The notes: a model not told the origin generated them from the letters alone. A DNA stretch of 64,000 nucleotides from an uncultured Acidaminobacter sp. (GCA_963665925.1 OY762511.1:9327-73326); one strand, 5' to 3'. Counted from the first letter of the stretch, positions 6,063 through 54,466 are shown. Translations and numbers: made by a program.

Positions 6063-6947
6063 ATGTCTATATTATTTAAAGGTTCAGGCGTTGCAGTCGT
6101 AACTCCGTTTACTGATGATAACCAGGTCAACTATGACAAGCTGGGAGAACTCCTGGATTGGCACATTGAAAATGGAACGGATGCAATCGTCATCGTCGGC
6201 ACCACTGGTGAAGCGCCGACACTTGAAGATGAAGAGCATCAGGAAGTCGTCAGATATACAGTTGAAAAAGTTGCAGGAAGAGTTCCTGTCATTGCAGGTA
6301 CGGGTTCAAACTCGACTTCCCACGCAATTATGATGAGCCAGCATGCAGAATCCGTTGGCGCAGATGGCGTACTCCTTGTAACGCCATATTACAACAAATC
6401 AACACAGCATGGATTAATTGCACATTTTGAGGCAATTGCTGACAGTATCAGCATTCCATGCGTTCTATACAATGTCCCTGGAAGAACAGGCATCAACATT
6501 GATGCTCCAACCGTAGCTGCTCTAGCTAAGCATCCAAACATTTGCGGTATTAAAGAAGCCAGCGGCAACATTTCGCTGGTGGCTGAAATTGCACGCGTCA
6601 TTCCGGAAGACTTCGGTCTTTGGTCTGGCAATGATGACATGATTGTTCCGCTTCTGTCCCTTGGAGGACATGGCGTTATTTCTGTTGTCGCCAACATTAT
6701 GCCTAAAGAAACGCATGATATGGTCATGAACTACCTTGATGGCAATGTCAACGAGGCAAGAAGACTTCAGCTTGATATGAAACCGCTTATAGACGCTCTT
6801 TTCTGTGAGACGAATCCGGTACCGGTTAAAGAAGCAATGAACATCATAGGCAAGGAAGTCGGTGCACTGAGACTGCCACTCGTTGGCATGCTTGAGCACA
6901 ATAAGGCACGCCTTGTAAAAGAACTCAAAGCAATGAATCTTGTTTAG
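6063..6947 (+). CDS. dapA: 4-hydroxy-tetrahydrodipicolinate synthase
   Basis: GTTGE, LYNVPGRTG, GIKEASG. Confidence 0.97.
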   Translation: MSILFKGSGVAVVTPFTDDNQVNYDKLGELLDWHIENGTDAIVIVGTTGEAPTLEDEEHQEVVRYTVEKVAGRVPVIAGTGSNSTSHAIMMSQHAESVGADGVLLVTPYYNKSTQHGLIAHFEAIADSISIPCVLYNVPGRTGINIDAPTVAALAKHPNICGIKEASGNISLVAEIARVIPEDFGLWSGNDDMIVPLLSLGGHGVISVVANIMPKETHDMVMNYLDGNVNEARRLQLDMKPLIDALFCETNPVPVKEAMNIIGKEVGALRLPLVGMLEHNKARLVKELKAMNLV

Positions 6948-6956
6948 GAGGACCGC

Positions 6957-7703
6957 ATGGTTAATATTATCTTGACAGGTTCAGGCGGCGCTATGGGCAA
7001 AACACTCGTGGAGCTCATTGGTCAAGCACCGGATTTGCAAATCAGTGCCGGTGTAGATAGGACCGTTCATCCACAATACGATTTTCCTCAGTATACGTCC
7101 TTTACTGAAGAAGTTAAGGGTGATGTCATTGTTGACTTCTCCCATTATACCTTTGTTCCTCAAATTCTTGATTTTGTGGAGCAATCAAAAATTCCTGCTG
7201 TAATCTGTACAACAGGCCTGACTGAAGAAATACTTGCACGTATTGATGTCCTTTCAGAAACGGCGCCCCTGTTCAGATCTGGCAACATGTCATTGGGCAT
7301 CAACCTGCTGATCAGCCTTGTAAAAAAGGCGACAGAGGTTCTTAGCGGCAGCTTTGATATGGAAATCATCGAGAAGCATCATAACAAAAAGGTAGACGCG
7401 CCAAGCGGCACTGCCAAGATGATTGCCGAAGCCATGCAGGAAGTCATTGAAAAGGATACACACTTCGTTTACGGACGCTCTGGAAACGAAGCGAAACGCA
7501 CTCCAGGAGAAATTGGCATTCACGCTGTTCGCGGCGGTACAATTGTTGGAGAGCACGATGTCATTTTCGCTGGCATCGATGAAATCATTGAAATACGCCA
7601 TACTGCTGCATCTAAGAAGGTGTTCGCCCAAGGCGCACTGGAAGCAGCACGTTTTATGAAAGGCCGTACATCTGGTCTATTCGATATGAACAACGTACTT
7701 TAG
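6957..7703 (+). CDS. dapB: 4-hydroxy-tetrahydrodipicolinate reductase
   Basis: EKHHNKKVDAPSGTA, RGGTIVGEH. Confidence 0.97.
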   Translation: MVNIILTGSGGAMGKTLVELIGQAPDLQISAGVDRTVHPQYDFPQYTSFTEEVKGDVIVDFSHYTFVPQILDFVEQSKIPAVICTTGLTEEILARIDVLSETAPLFRSGNMSLGINLLISLVKKATEVLSGSFDMEIIEKHHNKKVDAPSGTAKMIAEAMQEVIEKDTHFVYGRSGNEAKRTPGEIGIHAVRGGTIVGEHDVIFAGIDEIIEIRHTAASKKVFAQGALEAARFMKGRTSGLFDMNNVL

Positions 7704-7712
7704 GAGGAAAAA

Positions 7713-8429
7713 ATGTCACAGCAATATGATCTGACTAACCCATATGAAATCGCAAAATTTATCAAGGACGCTACTAAGAGTACACCTGTAAAAGCATACG
7801 TTAAAGGTGACTTAGAAGGTGTTGATACAAGCACTGTTCGTCTTTTTGGTCAAGGCAGCTTCTACGTCGTATTCGGCGAAGCAACAGATGTACTTGCCTT
7901 TGTTGAAGCAAATAAAGAGAAAATCGAAGACTACGAGCTGGAAAACGACCGTCGCAACTCGGCGATTCCACTACTTGATCTTAAGTATCAAAACGCACGC
8001 ATTGAGCCAGGTGCTATGATTAGAGACCGTGTTGCAATTGGCGACAATGCCGTTATCATGATGGGTGCGGTTATCAATATCGGTTCAGAAATCGGCGCTG
8101 GTACAATGATCGATATGAATGCGGTCCTTGGTGCAAGAGCAACAATTGGCAAGAATGCACATATTGGTGCAGGCGCTGTTATTGCAGGGGTTCTTGAGCC
8201 ACCATCAGCAACTCCGGTAATTGTTGAGGATGATGTTCTTGTCGGTGCGAACGCCGTTGTTCTCGAAGGTGTACGCATTGGTAAAGGTGCTGTTGTCGCA
8301 GCAGGCTCTATTGTTACTGAAGATGTTCCTGCCGGTGCAGTCGTAGCTGGCGCACCTGCTAAAGTCATCAAAATGGCTGATGCGAAAACGGCTGAAAAAA
8401 CAGAGATTCTGGACGACCTTCGCGGTTAA
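7713..8429 (+). CDS. dapH: tetrahydrodipicolinate N-acetyltransferase
   Basis: [18 protein letters not shown], hexapeptide repeats. Confidence 0.93.
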
Positions 8430-47417: not shown

Positions 47418-48284
47418 CTATTTCATTTTTCCACTGATATACTTGAACAAAAGACTTGGGATATCAGTATCTGAAGTAATACACACCGTTCTGAATCCAG
47501 GAATGGCATTTACCTCGCATACCGTTACCCCCTCATGTGTTTCCAGGAGGTCCACACCAGCGAAATCCAAATTCAAGGCATTCGCAGACCGAATCGCCAC
47601 GTGCGCCATTTCCGCCGTAAGCGCAACTGGCTCCGCACTTCCACCCTGGTGGTAGTTGGACTTGAAATCTCCTTCAGATTTTCTTCTAACCGCTGCAACG
47701 ACTTCTCCGCCGATGACATGAACGCGTATGTCCGTACCCGCGCTTTCTGCGACAAACTTCTGATACATGACCCGGTGTGAGGGGAGGTGTTCATGCGCCC
47801 GCTCCAGCTGGACACTGGAATCAGCCAGAAAGACTTCTTCTCCCTTTGACCCATAGAGACCCTTTATTACAAAAGGTGCCCCGAGATGCTTGGCAATTGT
47901 ATCAAACGCGAGCTTGCCAGATGCAATAATGGACTTTGGTGAAGCGATGTCATGCTTGGCAAGGCATTGATGTGTCGCCCATTTGTCCTGGGCGCAAAGC
48001 ATGGCTTCAGGCGTGTTGAACACACGTACGCCGGACAACTCCAGATGCTTTGCCAAATCAATCCCATAGCTGCGCATCATGGCAAAGTCAGGCAGCTGAA
48101 CCCCTTGACCGTTCATAAAAAACTGCAGGCTGTCCGCGTCTGTCATAAGTGTAAAATCCTCTTCAAAAAGAATTTCAACCTCAAGACCATATTTAAGTGC
48201 CGAGTCACGCATCCAGTCAAAGGCATTATCTCCAAACTTGGAGCTCAGCGTATCCCTGGAGTAAATTACCCATCCTCTTTTCAT
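47418..48284 (-). CDS. RimK-family ATP-grasp amino acid ligase
   Basis: AQDKW, VIKGLYGSKG, DIRV, FKSNYHQGG, GVD...EVNAIPG; ATGA overlap with the upstream gene. Confidence 0.9.
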   Translation of the reverse strand: MKRGWVIYSRDTLSSKFGDNAFDWMRDSALKYGLEVEILFEEDFTLMTDADSLQFFMNGQGVQLPDFAMMRSYGIDLAKHLELSGVRVFNTPEAMLCAQDKWATHQCLAKHDIASPKSIIASGKLAFDTIAKHLGAPFVIKGLYGSKGEEVFLADSSVQLERAHEHLPSHRVMYQKFVAESAGTDIRVHVIGGEVVAAVRRKSEGDFKSNYHQGGSAEPVALTAEMAHVAIRSANALNLDFAGVDLLETHEGVTVCEVNAIPGFRTVCITSDTDIPSLLFKYISGKMK

Positions 48285-49579
48285 ATGACCCCCCGCTTGC
48301 CAAGACAAGTTTTGACCTCACCCAGATAAATCTGTGTGCCGACAATATAAAGCGCTTCGCCATCTTCCAAATCATTCAGTGCGAAATCAATGGCCTCGTC
48401 CAGTTTTTCCATGTATAAGATACATGCACCCTGGTCAGCCAGTTCTTCAGCGAACACCCGCTGCGCCGCCTCGAAGGGCAAATGACATTTTTGAGCCGGC
48501 TTGGTCAGAATGATCTGGCTGGATACAGGAAGCAGTTCATGAACAACCTCGGCATAAGCCTTGTTGTCAGGCACACCGACAATGAACCTGACCTTCTTGT
48601 TTTCATCTATGGACCCGGCAATGGCCTTTGCGCATACAGGGTGAATGCACCCATCAATACGGATTTCCGGTTCACTGCTCACGCGTTCCAAACAGCCCTC
48701 AAAAGGAAAGGCCCATATGACTTCTAGCGCCGTCTCAGGGACAAACCGCTCTCCAAGCACACCTTGGGCACTCAAATAAGCAAGCGCGGCGTTTTCACGG
48801 TTGTAAAGAACATCAATGGTCCTCTCAATTTCCTGGGGAACCGTTTCGACAAAGGCAATCGCCAAGTTATGATCCTGCGCCTCTTTACGCAGTACGTCAT
48901 CCACAAGTGCCTCCTGTTTTGCACTGAAAACACGCTTTTGGGACGCGTGCATGATTCCCGCCTTATGCCAGGCGACTTCTTCAAGATTCCTGCCAAGATA
49001 GGGAATATGCTCATCAAACACGGCACCTATGACCGCATAGGCAGAGTCCACCGCAGCTACATCATCAAATCTGGCCCCGCGCCCACATTCCAAAATATTA
49101 ATTTCCGTATTCGTGTCGGAAAAATGCTTAAGAGCCATGGCAATGCCGTTTCCCATGGGACTGATATAAGCCCCCGCTTCCAGGGTGCTTTCAATGGCCT
49201 CGCTGATCGGTTTCACCGTATTGGCAGCTGCAATCAGATCCGAGTCTGAAATCATTTCTCCACATACGCGAATGCGTTCATTGTAAACATGCAAATGAGG
49301 ACTGGTGAATAATCCAGTCCTGATGCCATGCGCTCTTATGATGCGCTCAAGAAGCCTACTTATACTGCCTTTACCCTTACTGCCCGTAACGAGTACATTT
49401 ACCGCCTCTTTATCCGGTCGTCCCATCTGCTCAAGTATTTCAAGCGTATACCACGGCTGTCTGTTGTTCCTGTCATCCAGGGGATGTGATCCCTCATGAA
49501 TCAATCCCTCTGCCTGTGTATTGCGATTAAAGAAGGACTTATAGACAAACGCCATGACGTCGTCAGTTGACGTGACCAT
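48281..49579 (-). CDS. divergent FolC-like (Mur ligase superfamily) paralog
   Basis: VTGSKGKGS, FTSPHL, ECGRGARFDD, EHIPYLG, HKAGI; start at the ATG after GGAGG. Confidence 0.8.
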   Translation of the reverse strand: MVTSTDDVMAFVYKSFFNRNTQAEGLIHEGSHPLDDRNNRQPWYTLEILEQMGRPDKEAVNVLVTGSKGKGSISRLLERIIRAHGIRTGLFTSPHLHVYNERIRVCGEMISDSDLIAAANTVKPISEAIESTLEAGAYISPMGNGIAMALKHFSDTNTEINILECGRGARFDDVAAVDSAYAVIGAVFDEHIPYLGRNLEEVAWHKAGIMHASQKRVFSAKQEALVDDVLRKEAQDHNLAIAFVETVPQEIERTIDVLYNRENAALAYLSAQGVLGERFVPETALEVIWAFPFEGCLERVSSEPEIRIDGCIHPVCAKAIAGSIDENKKVRFIVGVPDNKAYAEVVHELLPVSSQIILTKPAQKCHLPFEAAQRVFAEELADQGACILYMEKLDEAIDFALNDLEDGEALYIVGTQIYLGEVKTCLGKRGVI

Positions 49580-50864
49580 AAAGAGCCTCCTGTCTAATGT
49601 GCCCAACCAGATAGAATGAGCCGAATATGAGAACGATATCATCCGGTGCAGCAGCCGAAATCACCCTGTGATAGGCCTCAATCGGTGTCTTCTCGACCTG
49701 AACATCCTCTGAGTACACGCCTATTTTTTCAGCGAGCAGGCCGGCTTCAATCCTTCGATCACTTTGAGGCTCGGTTACAACAACATGCTTCAAATAAGGC
49801 TGCATGATTTCCAGAACCTCGTCCACATCCTTATCCGCAAGCATGCCGATAAGAACCTTGACGGACTTGTCCTTGTCTATTATTTTATCCAAAGAAGCAC
49901 ACAGGGCGTGTGCGCCGTGTGGATTGTGGGCACCATCGAGTATGGTCTTTATATTGAGATCAAGCACTTCCAGCCTGCATGGCCATTTGGTCACTTCAAG
50001 ACCCTTTTCTATGGCCTCTTCCGATATTCCAACACCATATTCCCGGCGGAGGGTTTCGACCACGGTCATGGCAACAACAGCATTTCGCGCCTGATGCGCC
50101 CCAATCATGCCCAGCTTGAAAGACCGCGCACCAAACTCAAATACCGTACCTTCAAGAGAGATGCTTTTTACATCCACCATATCGACAGGCGCAACAATCA
50201 AATCACTCCCGAGTTTGCCCGCAATTTCCTGAAGAACTTGTGCAGCATCGTACTCCTGCGGATGAATGACTACGGGAACTTCTCTCTTTATGATCCCGCC
50301 CTTTTCAAAGGCAACCTTTCCAACACTGTCCCCCAGAATATTCACATGATCAAGTGCAATAGGTGTTATGACACTGACTAGGGGTTTATCAACCACATTT
50401 GTCGCATCCAGTCTGCCCCCGAGACCGACTTCAAGAATGACAAAATCAACTGCCTTCCTTGAAAAATGCAGAAATGCCATTGCTGTAAATATTTCGAACT
50501 CCGTATTGGGATCGTGCCCCTCATCCACCAGCTCTTCACAGGCAGCCTTAACGCACCCGGCAACATTAATGAATGCATCCTGATCGATCATCTGCCCGTT
50601 TATTTGAATACGCTCTTCCAAGGCAAAAAGGCTAGGGGAGGTATATAAACCCACCCGATAGCCTTCCTGCATTAGCATGCTTTTTATAAAACTGGCAGTT
50701 GACCCTTTTCCATTTGTGCCCGCAATATGAACGACACTGAGGTCATTCTGCGGATTTCCGAGTTTTGCAAGCAGGCGCCTCGTTGCGTCAAGGCCCGGCT
50801 TTATTCCAAATTTCTCAGTACTCTCAATGAATTGCAGTACATCTGCATAGGTCACGCTTTTCAC
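49563..50864 (-). CDS. folC: folylpolyglutamate synthase / dihydrofolate synthase
   Basis: IAGTNGKGS, EVGLGGRLDATN, WPCRLE, LDGAHNP, FGSFYL. Confidence 0.95.
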   Translation of the reverse strand: MKSVTYADVLQFIESTEKFGIKPGLDATRRLLAKLGNPQNDLSVVHIAGTNGKGSTASFIKSMLMQEGYRVGLYTSPSLFALEERIQINGQMIDQDAFINVAGCVKAACEELVDEGHDPNTEFEIFTAMAFLHFSRKAVDFVILEVGLGGRLDATNVVDKPLVSVITPIALDHVNILGDSVGKVAFEKGGIIKREVPVVIHPQEYDAAQVLQEIAGKLGSDLIVAPVDMVDVKSISLEGTVFEFGARSFKLGMIGAHQARNAVVAMTVVETLRREYGVGISEEAIEKGLEVTKWPCRLEVLDLNIKTILDGAHNPHGAHALCASLDKIIDKDKSVKVLIGMLADKDVDEVLEIMQPYLKHVVVTEPQSDRRIEAGLLAEKIGVYSEDVQVEKTPIEAYHRVISAAAPDDIVLIFGSFYLVGHIRQEALYGHVN

Positions 50865-53516
50865 CTACTTCATTTTTAGTTTCATTGAATCAATACGCTC
50901 AATGACTGTCTTAAGCATTTCTTCATACTTGTCTTTTTTGTCACGCTCTTCCTGAACAAGACTTTCCGGTGCCTTAGCTAGGAAGCCTTGGTTGTTCAGC
51001 TTCTTGTTTACACGGTCAACTTCCTTTTCAAGCTTGGCTTGTTCCTTAGAAAGTCTGTCCAGCTCCTTGTCAAAGTCAATCAGCTCTTCAAGCGGCAGGA
51101 ATAGCTCTCCGCCATCTATGACTACGGAAACTGCATCCTCTGGAACTTCAGTCTTGTCTGCAAATACCGCAACCTCTGAAGCTGAAGCAAGAGACTGCAT
51201 GTAAGCTTCGTTTTCAGAAATCAGATCGGCAACCATTTTTTCACCAACGACAATCAGTTTTGCCTTTCTTGAAGGTGCAACATCCATTTCAGCCCGTACA
51301 TTTCGTATGCCGCGAATGGCATTCATAATACGTTCCATTTGCGCTTCTGCTTCTGCGTCTGCACGCGCATCGTCATATGCTGGCCAATCCATTGTAATTA
51401 CACGACCCTCAGCCCCTGGAATATGACTCCAGATTTCCTCAGTGATGAACGGCATAAATGGATGCAGCATTTTCAGAATCTGCTTAAGAACGGACACAAG
51501 CACCTTTTGCACCGTTTCCTTCTCAGCTTGATCTTCCCCGTAAAGGCGCTTCTTAGCAAGCTCAATGTACCAGTCACAGTACTCATTCCATACAAAGTCA
51601 TAAACTTTTGTTGCAGCAAGACCCAGTTCATACTTATCCATGTTCACAGTGATGTCCTTCGCCACTGTATTCATTCTTGACAGGATCCACTTGTCCGAAA
51701 GCTCAAGCTTTTCTGTACCGTCAAGTGCCGATACTTCCTTATCAAGACCCATAAGTACAAATCGTGATGCATTCCATAGCTTATTTGCAAAGTTACGGCT
51801 CGCCTCAACTCTTTCATGCTGGTAACGCATATCGTTACCTGGAGAGTTGCCTGTAATCAGCATAAATCTCAGGGCATCCGCACCGTACTCTTCAATCACC
51901 TCAAGTGGATCAACACCATTGTTCAGGGACTTAGACATTTTTCGTCCATCCTCTGCACGAACGATACCGTGAATCAGAACATCGTCAAATGGCACCTCAC
52001 CCATCTGCTCAATACCGCTGAACATCATTCTGACAACCCAGAAGAAAATGATATCGTAGCCAGTAACAAGAACATTAGTAGGGTAGAAGTAGTCAAGCTC
52101 TGGTGTCTTTTCAGGCCAGCCCAGTGTAGAGAATGGCCATAGTGCCGAGCTGAACCATGTATCGAGAACATCTTCGTCCTGATTCAGGTTTTTAGAACCG
52201 CATGTACATGCCTCAGGAGCATCACGGCCTACAAGCATTTCACCACAGTCTTCGCAGTACCACGCCGGAATTCTATGACCCCACCATAGCTGTCTCGAAA
52301 TACACCAGTCTCTAATGTTTTCAAGCCAGTGGTTGTATGTCTTTGTAAAACGCTCAGGAACAAAATTTGTCGTACCGTCAGCAACCGCTTTCAGTGCAGG
52401 CTCAGCAAGTTTTTCCATAGCTACGAACCACTGGTCCGACAGACGCGGCTCGATTACCGTGTTACATCTGTAGCATGTGCCTACTGCATGGTCATGGTCT
52501 TTTACTTTTATCAGGTGACCCATTTCGTCCAGGTCCTTAACCAGAACCTTACGGCACTCGTAACGGTCCATGCCAGCATACTTACCAGCCAGCTTGTTCA
52601 TTGTTGCGTCTTCATTCATGATTGTAATCTGCTCAAGATTATGACGCTGACCGATTTCGAAGTCATTCGGGTCATGGGCTGGTGTTACTTTCAGCGCGCC
52701 CGTTCCCTTTTCCATATCAACATATGCATCGCCTACAATTGGAATTTCCTTATCCAGGATAGGAAGAATCGCCGTTTTTCCAATCAGATGCTTGTATCTG
52801 TCATCATCCGGATGTACAGCTACAGCCGTATCTCCCAGCATCGTCTCAGGTCTTGTTGTCGCGATTTCAAGGTACTCATCAGAATCTTTCACATTGTAAC
52901 GGATATGCCAGAAATGACCCGCTTGATCCTCATGTTCAACCTCGGCATCTGAAAGTGTCGTTTTACAGTCAGGGCACCAGTTGATGAGTCTGTAACCTTT
53001 ATAGATCAGATTCTTTTCATAGAGTCTTACAAAAACTTCTGTTACAGCCTTGTTGCAGCCCTCGTCCATTGTGAAGCGTTCACGCTCCCAGTCACACGAG
53101 TTTCCGAGCTTTTGCATCTGCTTGGTAATGCGACGTCCGTATTCTTCACGCCATTCCCATGCACGCTCCAGGAACGCATCGCGGCCAAGTTCTTCTTTTG
53201 TAATGCCTTCTTCGGCACGAATCTTATCAACAACCTTCACTTCAGTTGCAATAGAAGCATGGTCTGTACCCGGCAGCCATAGTGCTTCATAACCCTGCAT
53301 ACGCTTCCAGCGAATCAGAACATCCTGCAGCGTATGATCAAGGGCATGCCCCATATGCAGCTGACCCGTAATATTTGGCGGAGGAAGTACAATTGTATAA
53401 GGTTCCTTTTCAGAATTGACTTCTGCCTTGAACTTACCTTCCTTCATCCAGTTTTCATAAATGCGATCTTCAAAATCATGGGGGTTATAATTCTTTCCCA
53501 TTTCAAAATTTGACAT
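50865..53516 (-). CDS. valS: valine--tRNA ligase
   Basis: [30 protein letters not shown]-terminal coiled coil. Confidence 0.99.
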
Positions 53517-53597: not shown

Positions 53598-54113
53598 CTA
53601 TTCGCTGCCCTTAAACTGGTCCGGAATACGGATTCGACCCATCATGATCTCATCCACATATCTGCCATCCCGTACAACAGCCATTTTCTTAACGCCTTCT
53701 TCTACAAAGCCAAACTTTTCATAGAGCCTTTTTGCCCCGTCGTTTCCTTCGAGCACGCCTAGCTCAATGCGTGTCAGAAGCATCCAGTTGTCTGCCAAAT
53801 CAATCAGGGTTTCCATCAGCTTGGTTCCAACACCTACACCATGATAATCTGCATGGACAGAGATGCCGATTGAAGCTGAATGACTCAGTCTTGGACGGGC
53901 ATTATGCATCAGGCTTGCAATACCGACGACGTTTCCATCTACCTCAGCCACAAAGGCATGATCATTTCTGGAAAGATTCTTGATAAACTGCTCCGTTCTT
54001 TCGACGGTATCAGAAGCCACTGCAAGGGTATTCTCCTTAACGCCATCCATTCTCCGGATTACGTTGACGGCACTTGCATCCGCGAATGCCAATGGCCTAA
54101 TTTTAATTTCCAT
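53598..54113 (-). CDS. GNAT N-acetyltransferase, YhhY/AaaT-like
   Basis: HSASIGISV...YHGVGVG, LADNW..LTRIELGV...N..A..LYEKFGF; start at the ATG downstream of the T-box terminator. Confidence 0.82.
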   Translation of the reverse strand: MEIKIRPLAFADASAVNVIRRMDGVKENTLAVASDTVERTEQFIKNLSRNDHAFVAEVDGNVVGIASLMHNARPRLSHSASIGISVHADYHGVGVGTKLMETLIDLADNWMLLTRIELGVLEGNDGAKRLYEKFGFVEEGVKKMAVVRDGRYVDEIMMGRIRIPDQFKGSE

Positions 54114-54176
54114 AATGCCAACCTCCTTGTCAATCCCCGCTTTTTTATTATTAGGAAATACAACTTCCCAGATAAT

Positions 54177-54452
54177 AAAAAAAGCCCTTCGTTCTTGCTT
54201 GAATAACTTCAAACAAGGACGAAAGGCTATTTCGCGGTACCACCCTGATTCCAGCACAGTGTGCTGACACTTGACATTTATAACGCAATGACCCGTTTCA
54301 AGCTACCCATTCCCCCGACACACGGTCTGACGGACTTCACTTGAAAGTCTCCGAAGCTACCTTCTGCAATATTCTGTCACAGGAAATCTTTCAGCCGGTG
54401 AATTTCCCTCTCTAGCTGTGAGTATTGCATACTCCTCTTCATCATAGACTGC
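54177..54452 (-). ncRNA. T-box riboswitch, valine specifier
   Basis: AGAGAGGG...GGCTGAAAG stem I, GAAG-GTA-GC specifier (54360-54358), AGGGTGGTACCGCG T-box, terminator plus U-tract. Confidence 0.93.
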
Positions 54453-54466
54453 TTATGAATGTCTTC

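Follow-up and report, generated by a model that had tools for sequence, protein, structure and literature searches.

In the biosynthesis of coenzyme F420 (CofE/CofF) and of tetrahydromethanopterin (H4MPT; MptN), a RimK-type enzyme adds an alpha-linked L-glutamate to the tail of the cofactor, while the known models with a protein target are RimK on ribosomal protein S6, LysX on LysW, and the TTLL enzymes with their CCP erasers on tubulin. Here, we describe a stretch of 64,000 nucleotides (nt) from an uncultured Acidaminobacter sp. (GCA_963665925.1, OY762511.1:9327-73326; hereafter “the window”), in which a canonical folC gene is followed by a gene for a divergent FolC paralog and by a gene for a RimK-family ligase. 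The clade of the paralog is termed FolC2 throughout, as a working name. In our opinion (probability of roughly 85%), FolC2 and RimK are functional partners in a glutamylation pathway not described before, the former being no redundant folylpolyglutamate synthase (FPGS) and the latter no modifier of S6, and the pair probably equips folate, or else another molecule, with a glutamate chain of an unusual kind. No description of the FolC2 clade or of the FolC2-RimK pair was found in the literature searched, where the name “FolC2” designates other proteins, i.e., a chlamydial CofE homologue and a gene of the Lactobacillus reuteri folate cluster (the latter not compared with our clade).

The three ligase genes are arranged as follows:

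49563..50864, minus strand: canonical folC (FPGS/dihydrofolate synthase, DHFS); TIGR01499, 376 bits
48281..49579, minus strand: FolC2, divergent FolC paralog of 432 amino acids (aa); TIGR01499, 164.2 bits; distinct clade
47418..48284, minus strand: RimK-family ATP-grasp ligase of 288 aa, ‘W’ subtype; TIGR00768, 206.7 bits

The ATG of FolC2 overlaps the 3' end of folC by 17 nt and is preceded by a GGAGG Shine-Dalgarno sequence 8 nt upstream, while the FolC2 stop and the RimK start share an ATGA (4-nt overlap). The canonical folC protein shows the motifs GTNGKGS, TEFE, EVGLGGRLDATN, DGAHNP and GSFY, and is placed in the ValS-linked canonical clade of the FolC tree. When compared with their closest relatives, the three genes have ratios of non-synonymous to synonymous substitution rates (dN/dS) of 0.08 (folC), 0.13 (FolC2) and 0.15 (RimK), which indicates purifying selection on all of them. 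The original prediction, which had described three coupled ligases with overlaps of 17 and 4 nt and a single terminator, agrees with the open reading frames (ORFs), the junctions and the hairpin reported below; the motifs that it had listed for FolC2 (GSKGKGS, TSPHL, ECGRGARFDD) were also seen, as were DGCIHP in place of DGAHNP and an N-terminal extension or insert.

The association of FolC2 with RimK was examined by clustering all ORFs from 80 fetched FolC2 loci and from 80 metagenome loci carrying the RimK subtype of the window, and by annotating the recurrent clusters. By far the commonest neighbour of FolC2 is a RimK-family gene, which adjoins 34 of the 79 FolC2 genes (window copy included). 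All these cases belong to Bacillota (34/60), with 26/44 in the Clostridia subclade and 8/16 in Bacilli, against 0/19 in Chloroflexota. The gene order and overlaps of the window are kept in three relatives of the same genus, in a sister genus and in a metagenome-assembled genome (MAG) of Peptostreptococcaceae, and the pair is also conserved in Caminicella, Lachnospiraceae, Peptoniphilus and several Bacilli. RimK may precede or follow FolC2; some Bacilli combine two RimK paralogs with FolC2 and others have a convergent RimK-like gene, while in Caminicella sporogenes the overlapping FolC2-RimK pair stands alone, away from folC. Moreover, the two enzymes can be fused: a single RimK-FolC2 protein of 768 aa is encoded in one Lachnospiraceae locus, and four further fusion clusters (P0195, P0197, P0198, P0315), hence five in total, were retrieved from 1.8 billion representative proteins. 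Three long FolC-FolC proteins (P0266, P0283, P0308) were set aside, as they consist of two canonical-type units and are not FolC2 fusions.

In 11 of the 80 loci, FolC2 has canonical folC and/or valS within 8 kb, and no fewer than five arrangements can be distinguished. For instance, the module is inverted between valS and folC in Sutcliffiella, whereas Peptoniphilus shows the order valS-folC-c3-RimK-FolC2 (c3 being a hydrolase-like partner described below) and some Clostridia have FolC2 upstream of nadABC-valS-folC. Besides folC and valS, the recurrent neighbours include PGI, Pho regulon genes, MntP, MscS, SpoVA, an M23 peptidase, LysM, HtrA, GT4, FtsK, SmpB and an SDF transporter. FolC2 is nonetheless often found without RimK, as in all 19 Chloroflexota loci and in many Clostridia. 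Two metagenome contigs (L112 and L113) share the valS-folC-FolC2-RimK order of the window, with folC (L112) and FolC2 (L113) each broken into two ORFs, owing either to frameshifts introduced by the assembly or to decay of these copies in close relatives.

The FolC2 clade is widespread, since at least 396 loci matched its sequence pattern when each species was represented by one genome. Homologues outscoring the window's own FolC are present in many Clostridia, Bacilli and Chloroflexota, and most of those named in their source records are called “bifunctional FPGS/DHFS”. On the TIGR01499 model, the FolC2 of the window is borderline (164.2 bits for a cut-off of 162.65), while other members reach 218–258 bits. 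When 98 FolC-family proteins of the fetched loci are placed in a tree, FolC2 forms its own clade with a support of 99 in the Shimodaira-Hasegawa-like approximate likelihood-ratio test (SH-aLRT), separate both from the ValS-linked canonical FolCs and from a third group, here named FolC3. FolC2 is present in 4/4 genomes within the genus and coexists with one or more canonical FolCs in the 9/9 genomes examined, so that it is never the sole FolC there. Its AlphaFold2 (AF2) model has a predicted local distance difference test (pLDDT) score of 91.3, and its closest PDB structures are FPGS/FolC enzymes (2vor, 1o5z, 1w78; template modelling [TM] scores of 0.73–0.82), followed by pMurE/MurE (TM of about 0.6) and by the M domain of cyanophycin synthetase (about 0.57).

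Two other FolC arrangements were observed along the way. In several Bacilli (L039, L045, L046, L047, L050, L051, L070; at about 6600–8000 in each), FolC3 lies directly 5' of FolC2 in tandem; its P-loop reads GSCGKGS and GHMH stands for TxFE, while DGAHN and GS.Y are kept, and these loci are devoid of RimK. Many Lachnospiraceae and Peptoniphilus (G041, G043, G111 and others) have two canonical-type FolC genes even where FolC2 is absent, and such paired FolCs may be separate DHFS and FPGS enzymes.

Regarding its partner, the RimK of the window exceeds the cut-off of the subfamily model TIGR00768 (206.7 bits vs. 143.4) and matches PF08443 (153 bits), but it remains below every equivalog cut-off considered, whether for the S6 ligase (NF007764, 130.3 vs. 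331), LysX (140.7 vs. 275.6), MptN (136.5 vs. 350) or CofF (85.7 vs. 300); the CofF, MptN and LysX cut-offs are likewise missed by 31 FolC2-linked RimK relatives. The N-terminal domain Rimk_N (PF18030) was not detected in this protein, whereas the second RimK of the genome has it. In the RimK tree, FolC2-linked RimKs and related tandem RimKs group together, apart from E. coli RimK and from that second RimK, and FolC2 is partnered by at least four RimK subtypes in different lineages. The nearest solved structures are nevertheless those of the E. coli and Pseudomonas RimKs. As for the classical target, the S6 protein of the same genome ends in ...VTRKDA and has no C-terminal glutamate or acidic tail.

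Other RimK genes were seen in distinct settings. The second RimK of the genome (322 aa; TIGR00768, 238 bits; L005:936-2439, i.e., G000:C1 at about 411.9–413.4 kb, outside the window) overlaps by 17 nt a downstream gene for a GNAT acetyltransferase of 183 aa, and the two may constitute a ligase-acetylase pair for an N-acetyl-dipeptide or a similar compound. RimKs of the same broad clade as those linked to FolC2 also occur without FolC2 as coupled pairs or triplets, one per subtype, in varied housekeeping contexts (L108:5001-7500, L116, L117, L126, L109:5001-6769 and about 35 other metagenome loci), and the search of the MAG behind L108 gave only a FolC match of canonical level and no FolC2. Finally, a fusion of an SDF symporter with SBP_bac_3 (about 720–740 aa; L140:664-2859, with the same cluster in L150, L155, L160 and L176) lies directly 5' of a single longer RimK-like gene (274–341 aa) in L150, L155, L160 and L176, while in L140 no RimK ORF is labelled, yet a RimK match exists just 3' of the transporter. 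This adjacency hints at glutamate/aspartate uptake coupled to ligation.

A second conserved partner is found near FolC2/RimK in other lineages, under two forms: a stand-alone protein of about 220 aa (c12, five loci) and a protein of about 670 aa (c3, nine loci), in which the same domain is N-terminal and followed by a CDC48_N-like barrel and C-terminal membrane helices. Examples of this family, taking both forms together, are L029:9322-11376, L101:5109-7127, L063:3602-6146 and L066:861-1547. Its conserved motifs are SAPH(S/A)VNH, DxH and ExN. At the sequence level, the PDB search gave only noise and no Pfam match was significant (FGase, E = 0.09). In contrast, the AF2 model of the domain (pLDDT 88.7) has its best matches among N-formylglutamate amidohydrolases (2odf, 2q7s) and phage poly-gamma-glutamate hydrolase (3a9l, 21dc), all four with a probability of 1.0 and TM scores of about 0.5–0.58. 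An FGase/PghP-like hydrolase of this kind would suit the trimming of a glutamyl chain. The genome of the window was searched for c3/c12 and this partner was not found in it.

The operon extends further 5' than the three ligases, as it includes a T-box, a GNAT gene and valS; its remaining features are:

54212..54454, minus strand: T-box leader, with which the operon begins; Rfam RF00230, 107.9 bits for a gathering score of 93
53598..54257, minus strand: GNAT N-acetyltransferase ORF, first gene past the T-box; NCBIfam NF007527, 95.9 bits over residues 50-209, below the cut-off of 236
50865..53516, minus strand: valS, valine--tRNA ligase; NF004349, 1284.7 bits
47366..47405, minus strand: strong intrinsic terminator closing the operon; hairpin of -17.1 kcal/mol, z = -2.5, then UUUUUUAUU

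The T-box thus precedes GNAT first and valS second (53598-54454), and the true start of the GNAT ORF is probably at about 54110, 3' of the T-box. When read directly, the junction between the valS stop and the GTG start of folC has a gap of 0 nt. At the other end, the terminator hairpin begins 12 nt past the RimK stop and is followed by U6AUU. From its layout, the whole GNAT-valS-folC-FolC2-RimK set may respond to uncharged tRNA-Val.

According to our proposal, FolC2 and RimK would be partner ATP-dependent amide ligases working successively on one acceptor, as an accessory glutamylation module whose enzymes would be produced together with FolC from one T-box-controlled, translationally coupled transcript. 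Briefly, FolC would first make pteroyl-(gamma-Glu)n; FolC2 would then activate a carboxylate as an acyl phosphate, using the Mg-binding Glu164 and His191 and a carbamylated Lys206, and add one more residue; finally, the RimK-type ligase would add an alpha-linked L-glutamate as a cap or an extension. The genes, their coupling, the conservation and fusions of the pair and the kept or changed residues are observed, whereas we infer which acceptor is used, how the steps follow one another, which linkages are formed and which amino acid is added. Since FolC2 exists without RimK and RimK sets exist without FolC2, neither enzyme needs the product of the other, and the acceptor must therefore pre-exist, which fits a supply by the ever-present canonical FolC. 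The genome has folP, and hence de novo folate synthesis. Tentatively, and with a confidence that stays under even odds, we regard this acceptor as the glutamyl tail of folate, remodelled by FolC2 and RimK. The link to folate would follow from the paralogy with FolC, the repeated residence in valS-folC loci and the translational coupling to folC. Folate tails with alpha linkages have a precedent, in that alpha-linked folylpolyglutamates were reported in E. coli, according to the passage of PMC1971073 that cites Ferone et al. (1986).

The catalytic core of FolC2 is compatible with this proposal. Group-specific conservation, computed from 79 FolC2 sequences and 12 canonical FolCs, indicates that the machinery for ATP, Mg and carbamate is kept (GSKGKGS P-loop, Glu164, His191, Lys206, Asn263, Asp309), with E164, H191 and K206 in 100% of the FolC2 sequences and the P-loop residues in 97–99%. 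The corresponding reference residues are E143, H170 and K185 of Lactobacillus casei FolC, whose numbering agrees with the printed alignment to 1fgs. Fewer changes affect the N-terminal loop, where an acidic residue is kept and the Arg equivalent to R49 of Mycobacterium tuberculosis FolC is kept in most members. The subgroup of the window, which is without this Arg, is the most derived one; it features an extra N-terminal insert and has lost about 25 residues from the middle domain, and its substitutions are conserved among members sharing 46–60% identity. Altogether, conservation patterns suggest that the Mur-ligase chemistry of FolC2 is intact and that its amino-acid site is altered.

Several observations weigh against our reading, beginning with that altered site. 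First, (T/S)xFE, of which the Phe and the Glu are invariant in 12/12 canonical FolCs, is lost in FolC2 and replaced by Y-x-(G/S)-P-x-G. In the printed alignment, this motif corresponds to S150-K-F152-E153 of M. tuberculosis FolC, whose S150 and E153 have been placed in the substrate-binding pocket (PMC6664864). Second, the His of DGAHN becomes Ile in 90% of the FolC2 sequences (Ile312 in the window protein), with the Asp kept, while GS.Y becomes GTQ (Ser to Thr in 90%, Tyr not conserved), such that the window protein has Thr415-Gln416 where FolC has Ser-Leu. The equivalent L. casei residues, D313/H316 and S412/Y414, are presumably part of the glutamate/folate site. Third, a conserved Arg (R370) is replaced by His, and the FolC2 of the window has a Cys for the Arg of GRxE, an Arg shared by 97% of FolC2 proteins and by every canonical FolC in the comparison. 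Two further replacements, D(A/S)TN to DDVN and DH to EH, are themselves conserved. Beyond the active site, the module is patchy, being present in 1/21 other genera of the family of the window and in 2/71 sampled Lachnospiraceae. No folate gene besides folC recurs around FolC2 (80 genome loci) or around the RimK subtype (80 metagenome loci), and the proximity to valS-folC could simply date from the tandem duplication by which FolC2 arose. Finally, the membrane-anchored hydrolase, the MscS channel and the envelope genes that accompany the module in other lineages point more to a polymer or peptide than to a cofactor.

The leading alternative is a folate-independent product, for which we see a substantial chance, again short of an even one. 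The two enzymes would then form a split or fused synthetase following the domain logic of cyanophycin synthetase, and make a free oligo- or polyamide with mixed linkages, or else attach a tail to a different metabolite. RimK would build or extend an alpha-linked backbone or dipeptide of glutamate (or aspartate), to the carboxylate of which FolC2 would ligate an amino acid or an amine, and the cell might use the product as counter-ion, osmolyte or reserve, or as part of its envelope, with the hydrolase turning it over in other lineages. Such a scheme is favoured by the exchange of the pocket motif and amino-acid-site residues for other conserved ones, by the fusions, in which the ATP-grasp part precedes the Mur ligase as it does in CphA1, by the recurrence of FolC2 with an N-formylglutamate amidohydrolase/poly-gamma-glutamate hydrolase-like domain, and by the absence of folate genes from the neighbourhoods. 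The related RimK pairs and triplets lacking FolC2 in their locus (including L108, with its canonical-level FolC match only) and the RimKs adjoining an SDF transporter of glutamate/aspartate type go in the same direction, as does the synthesis of poly-alpha-Glu from free glutamate by E. coli RimK, at least as Kino (2011) is cited in PMC8141765. However, FolC is a far closer relative of FolC2 than either PgsB or the M domain of CphA (TM of about 0.8 with FPGS vs. 0.57 with CphA1), and since FolC2 commonly stands alone (19/19 Chloroflexota, many Clostridia), it cannot depend on a RimK product. Moreover, the scheme would have to do without a CphA N-domain, a cyanophycinase or an exporter, and, in the genome of the window, without the hydrolase. 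We slightly prefer the folate tail over a folate-independent peptide or polymer, given that FolC2 is repeatedly tied to folC, both physically and by translation, and that both families are known for “cofactor tail” enzymes.

The remaining explanations fare much worse. It is improbable that the target is a protein, on which FolC2 would start a gamma-linked branch or of which RimK would extend the C-terminus. RimK-family enzymes do modify protein C-termini (PMC10375531), and the FGase/PghP-like partner has a fold common to metallocarboxypeptidases, but the S6 of the genome has no glutamate tail and no gene for a small carrier protein adjoins the pair in the window. Furthermore, Mur- and FolC-type ligases are not known to act on proteins. 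We give equally little credit to the idea that FolC2 of the window subgroup is catalytically weakened and mainly acts as a scaffold or specificity subunit for RimK. Admittedly, the Arg-to-Cys change in GRxE, the middle-domain deletion, the missing equivalent of R49 and the long branches of the subgroup in the tree would all be expected of such a protein. On the other hand, the P-loop, Glu164, His191, Lys206, Asn263 and Asp309 are kept, the dN/dS of FolC2 is 0.13, and the same substitutions are held at 46–60% identity, a pattern more suggestive of adaptation than of decay. Lastly, a redundant FPGS and an S6-modifying RimK adjacent by chance, the scenario that the original prediction had held against itself, is very improbable: the database labels and a TIGR01499 cut-off that is just reached speak for it, but the two genes recur together with coupled translation and are in places joined into one, the substrate-site residues of FolC2 are systematically changed, FolC2 is never the sole FolC (9 genomes), S6 is tailless, and RimK scores 130 vs. 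331 on the S6-ligase model with no detectable Rimk_N.

The same prediction had proposed a two-enzyme glutamylation module. The neighbourhood comparison supports a functional module, through the conservation and the fusions of the FolC2-RimK pair, while the data do not choose among folate, another pterin, a peptide and a polymer as its object. An extended version, in which FolC2, RimK and (elsewhere) the hydrolase would form a full set of enzymes for writing and erasing a glutamyl chain of mixed gamma and alpha linkages, revealing either the genes for alpha-folylpolyglutamates or a new split polyamide synthetase derived from FolC, seems doubtful to us. Were folate the acceptor, the pair would provide the enzymes behind non-standard folate tails, a question standing since 1986, and would bear on folate retention, enzyme specificity and the measurement of microbial folates; otherwise, it would lead to a new glutamate-based metabolite or polymer with a dedicated hydrolase. 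In either case, the label “bifunctional FPGS/DHFS” is probably wrong for FolC2 in hundreds of species, including gut Lachnospiraceae, and the pair is a small biochemical target, as it consists of two soluble enzymes of which natural fusions exist.

How, then, does the module compare with known systems? The RimK/S6 system uses an ATP-grasp ligase of the same subfamily, whose E. coli and Pseudomonas representatives are structurally the nearest, but it differs by the sub-equivalog score of the window RimK, its undetected Rimk_N, the lack of RimA/RimB-type neighbours, the tailless S6 and the separation in the tree. Cyanophycin synthetase CphA1 (N-G-M) also combines an ATP-grasp with a Mur-type ligase, in the order seen in the five fusion clusters, and forms different amide bonds on one product; unlike it, our pair has no N-domain, FolC2 is FolC-like rather than MurE-like, and each half also occurs alone. 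Accordingly low scores were obtained with the cyanophycin models (RimK, 62.7 on TIGR02068 for a cut-off of 850; FolC2, 14.4 on NF010623 for a cut-off of 877) and with the PgsB model TIGR04012 (21.5 bits vs. 222.7); PgsC/PgsA-like genes are absent from the operon as annotated, although no search was aimed at them. The methylofuran enzymes MyfA/MyfB (PMC8141765), both ATP-grasp and devoid of a FolC-like partner, were retained as a loose analogue only.

FolC itself shares with FolC2 the fold and the ATP/Mg/carbamate machinery, and the two are adjacent and co-translated, whereas FolC2 has no (T/S)xFE, DGAHN His or GS.Y and is accessory and patchy. The CofE+CofF and MptN (tetrahydrosarcinapterin) systems offer the same logic, i.e., a gamma-glutamyl tail to which a RimK-family enzyme, in an optional and lineage-restricted manner, adds an alpha-linked L-glutamate, and the RimK of the window matches the same TIGR00768 subfamily as that enzyme. 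Yet CofE is neither a Mur- nor a FolC-type ligase, and the window RimK stays well below both the CofF and the MptN cut-offs (85.7 vs. 300 and 136.5 vs. 350). Neither F420 nor H4MPT is generally expected in these Firmicutes. The literature searched connects no RimK with folate biochemically, and no gene is known to have been assigned to the folylpoly-alpha-glutamate activity of E. coli. An alpha-ligase partner such as RimK would explain alpha-linked folate tails.

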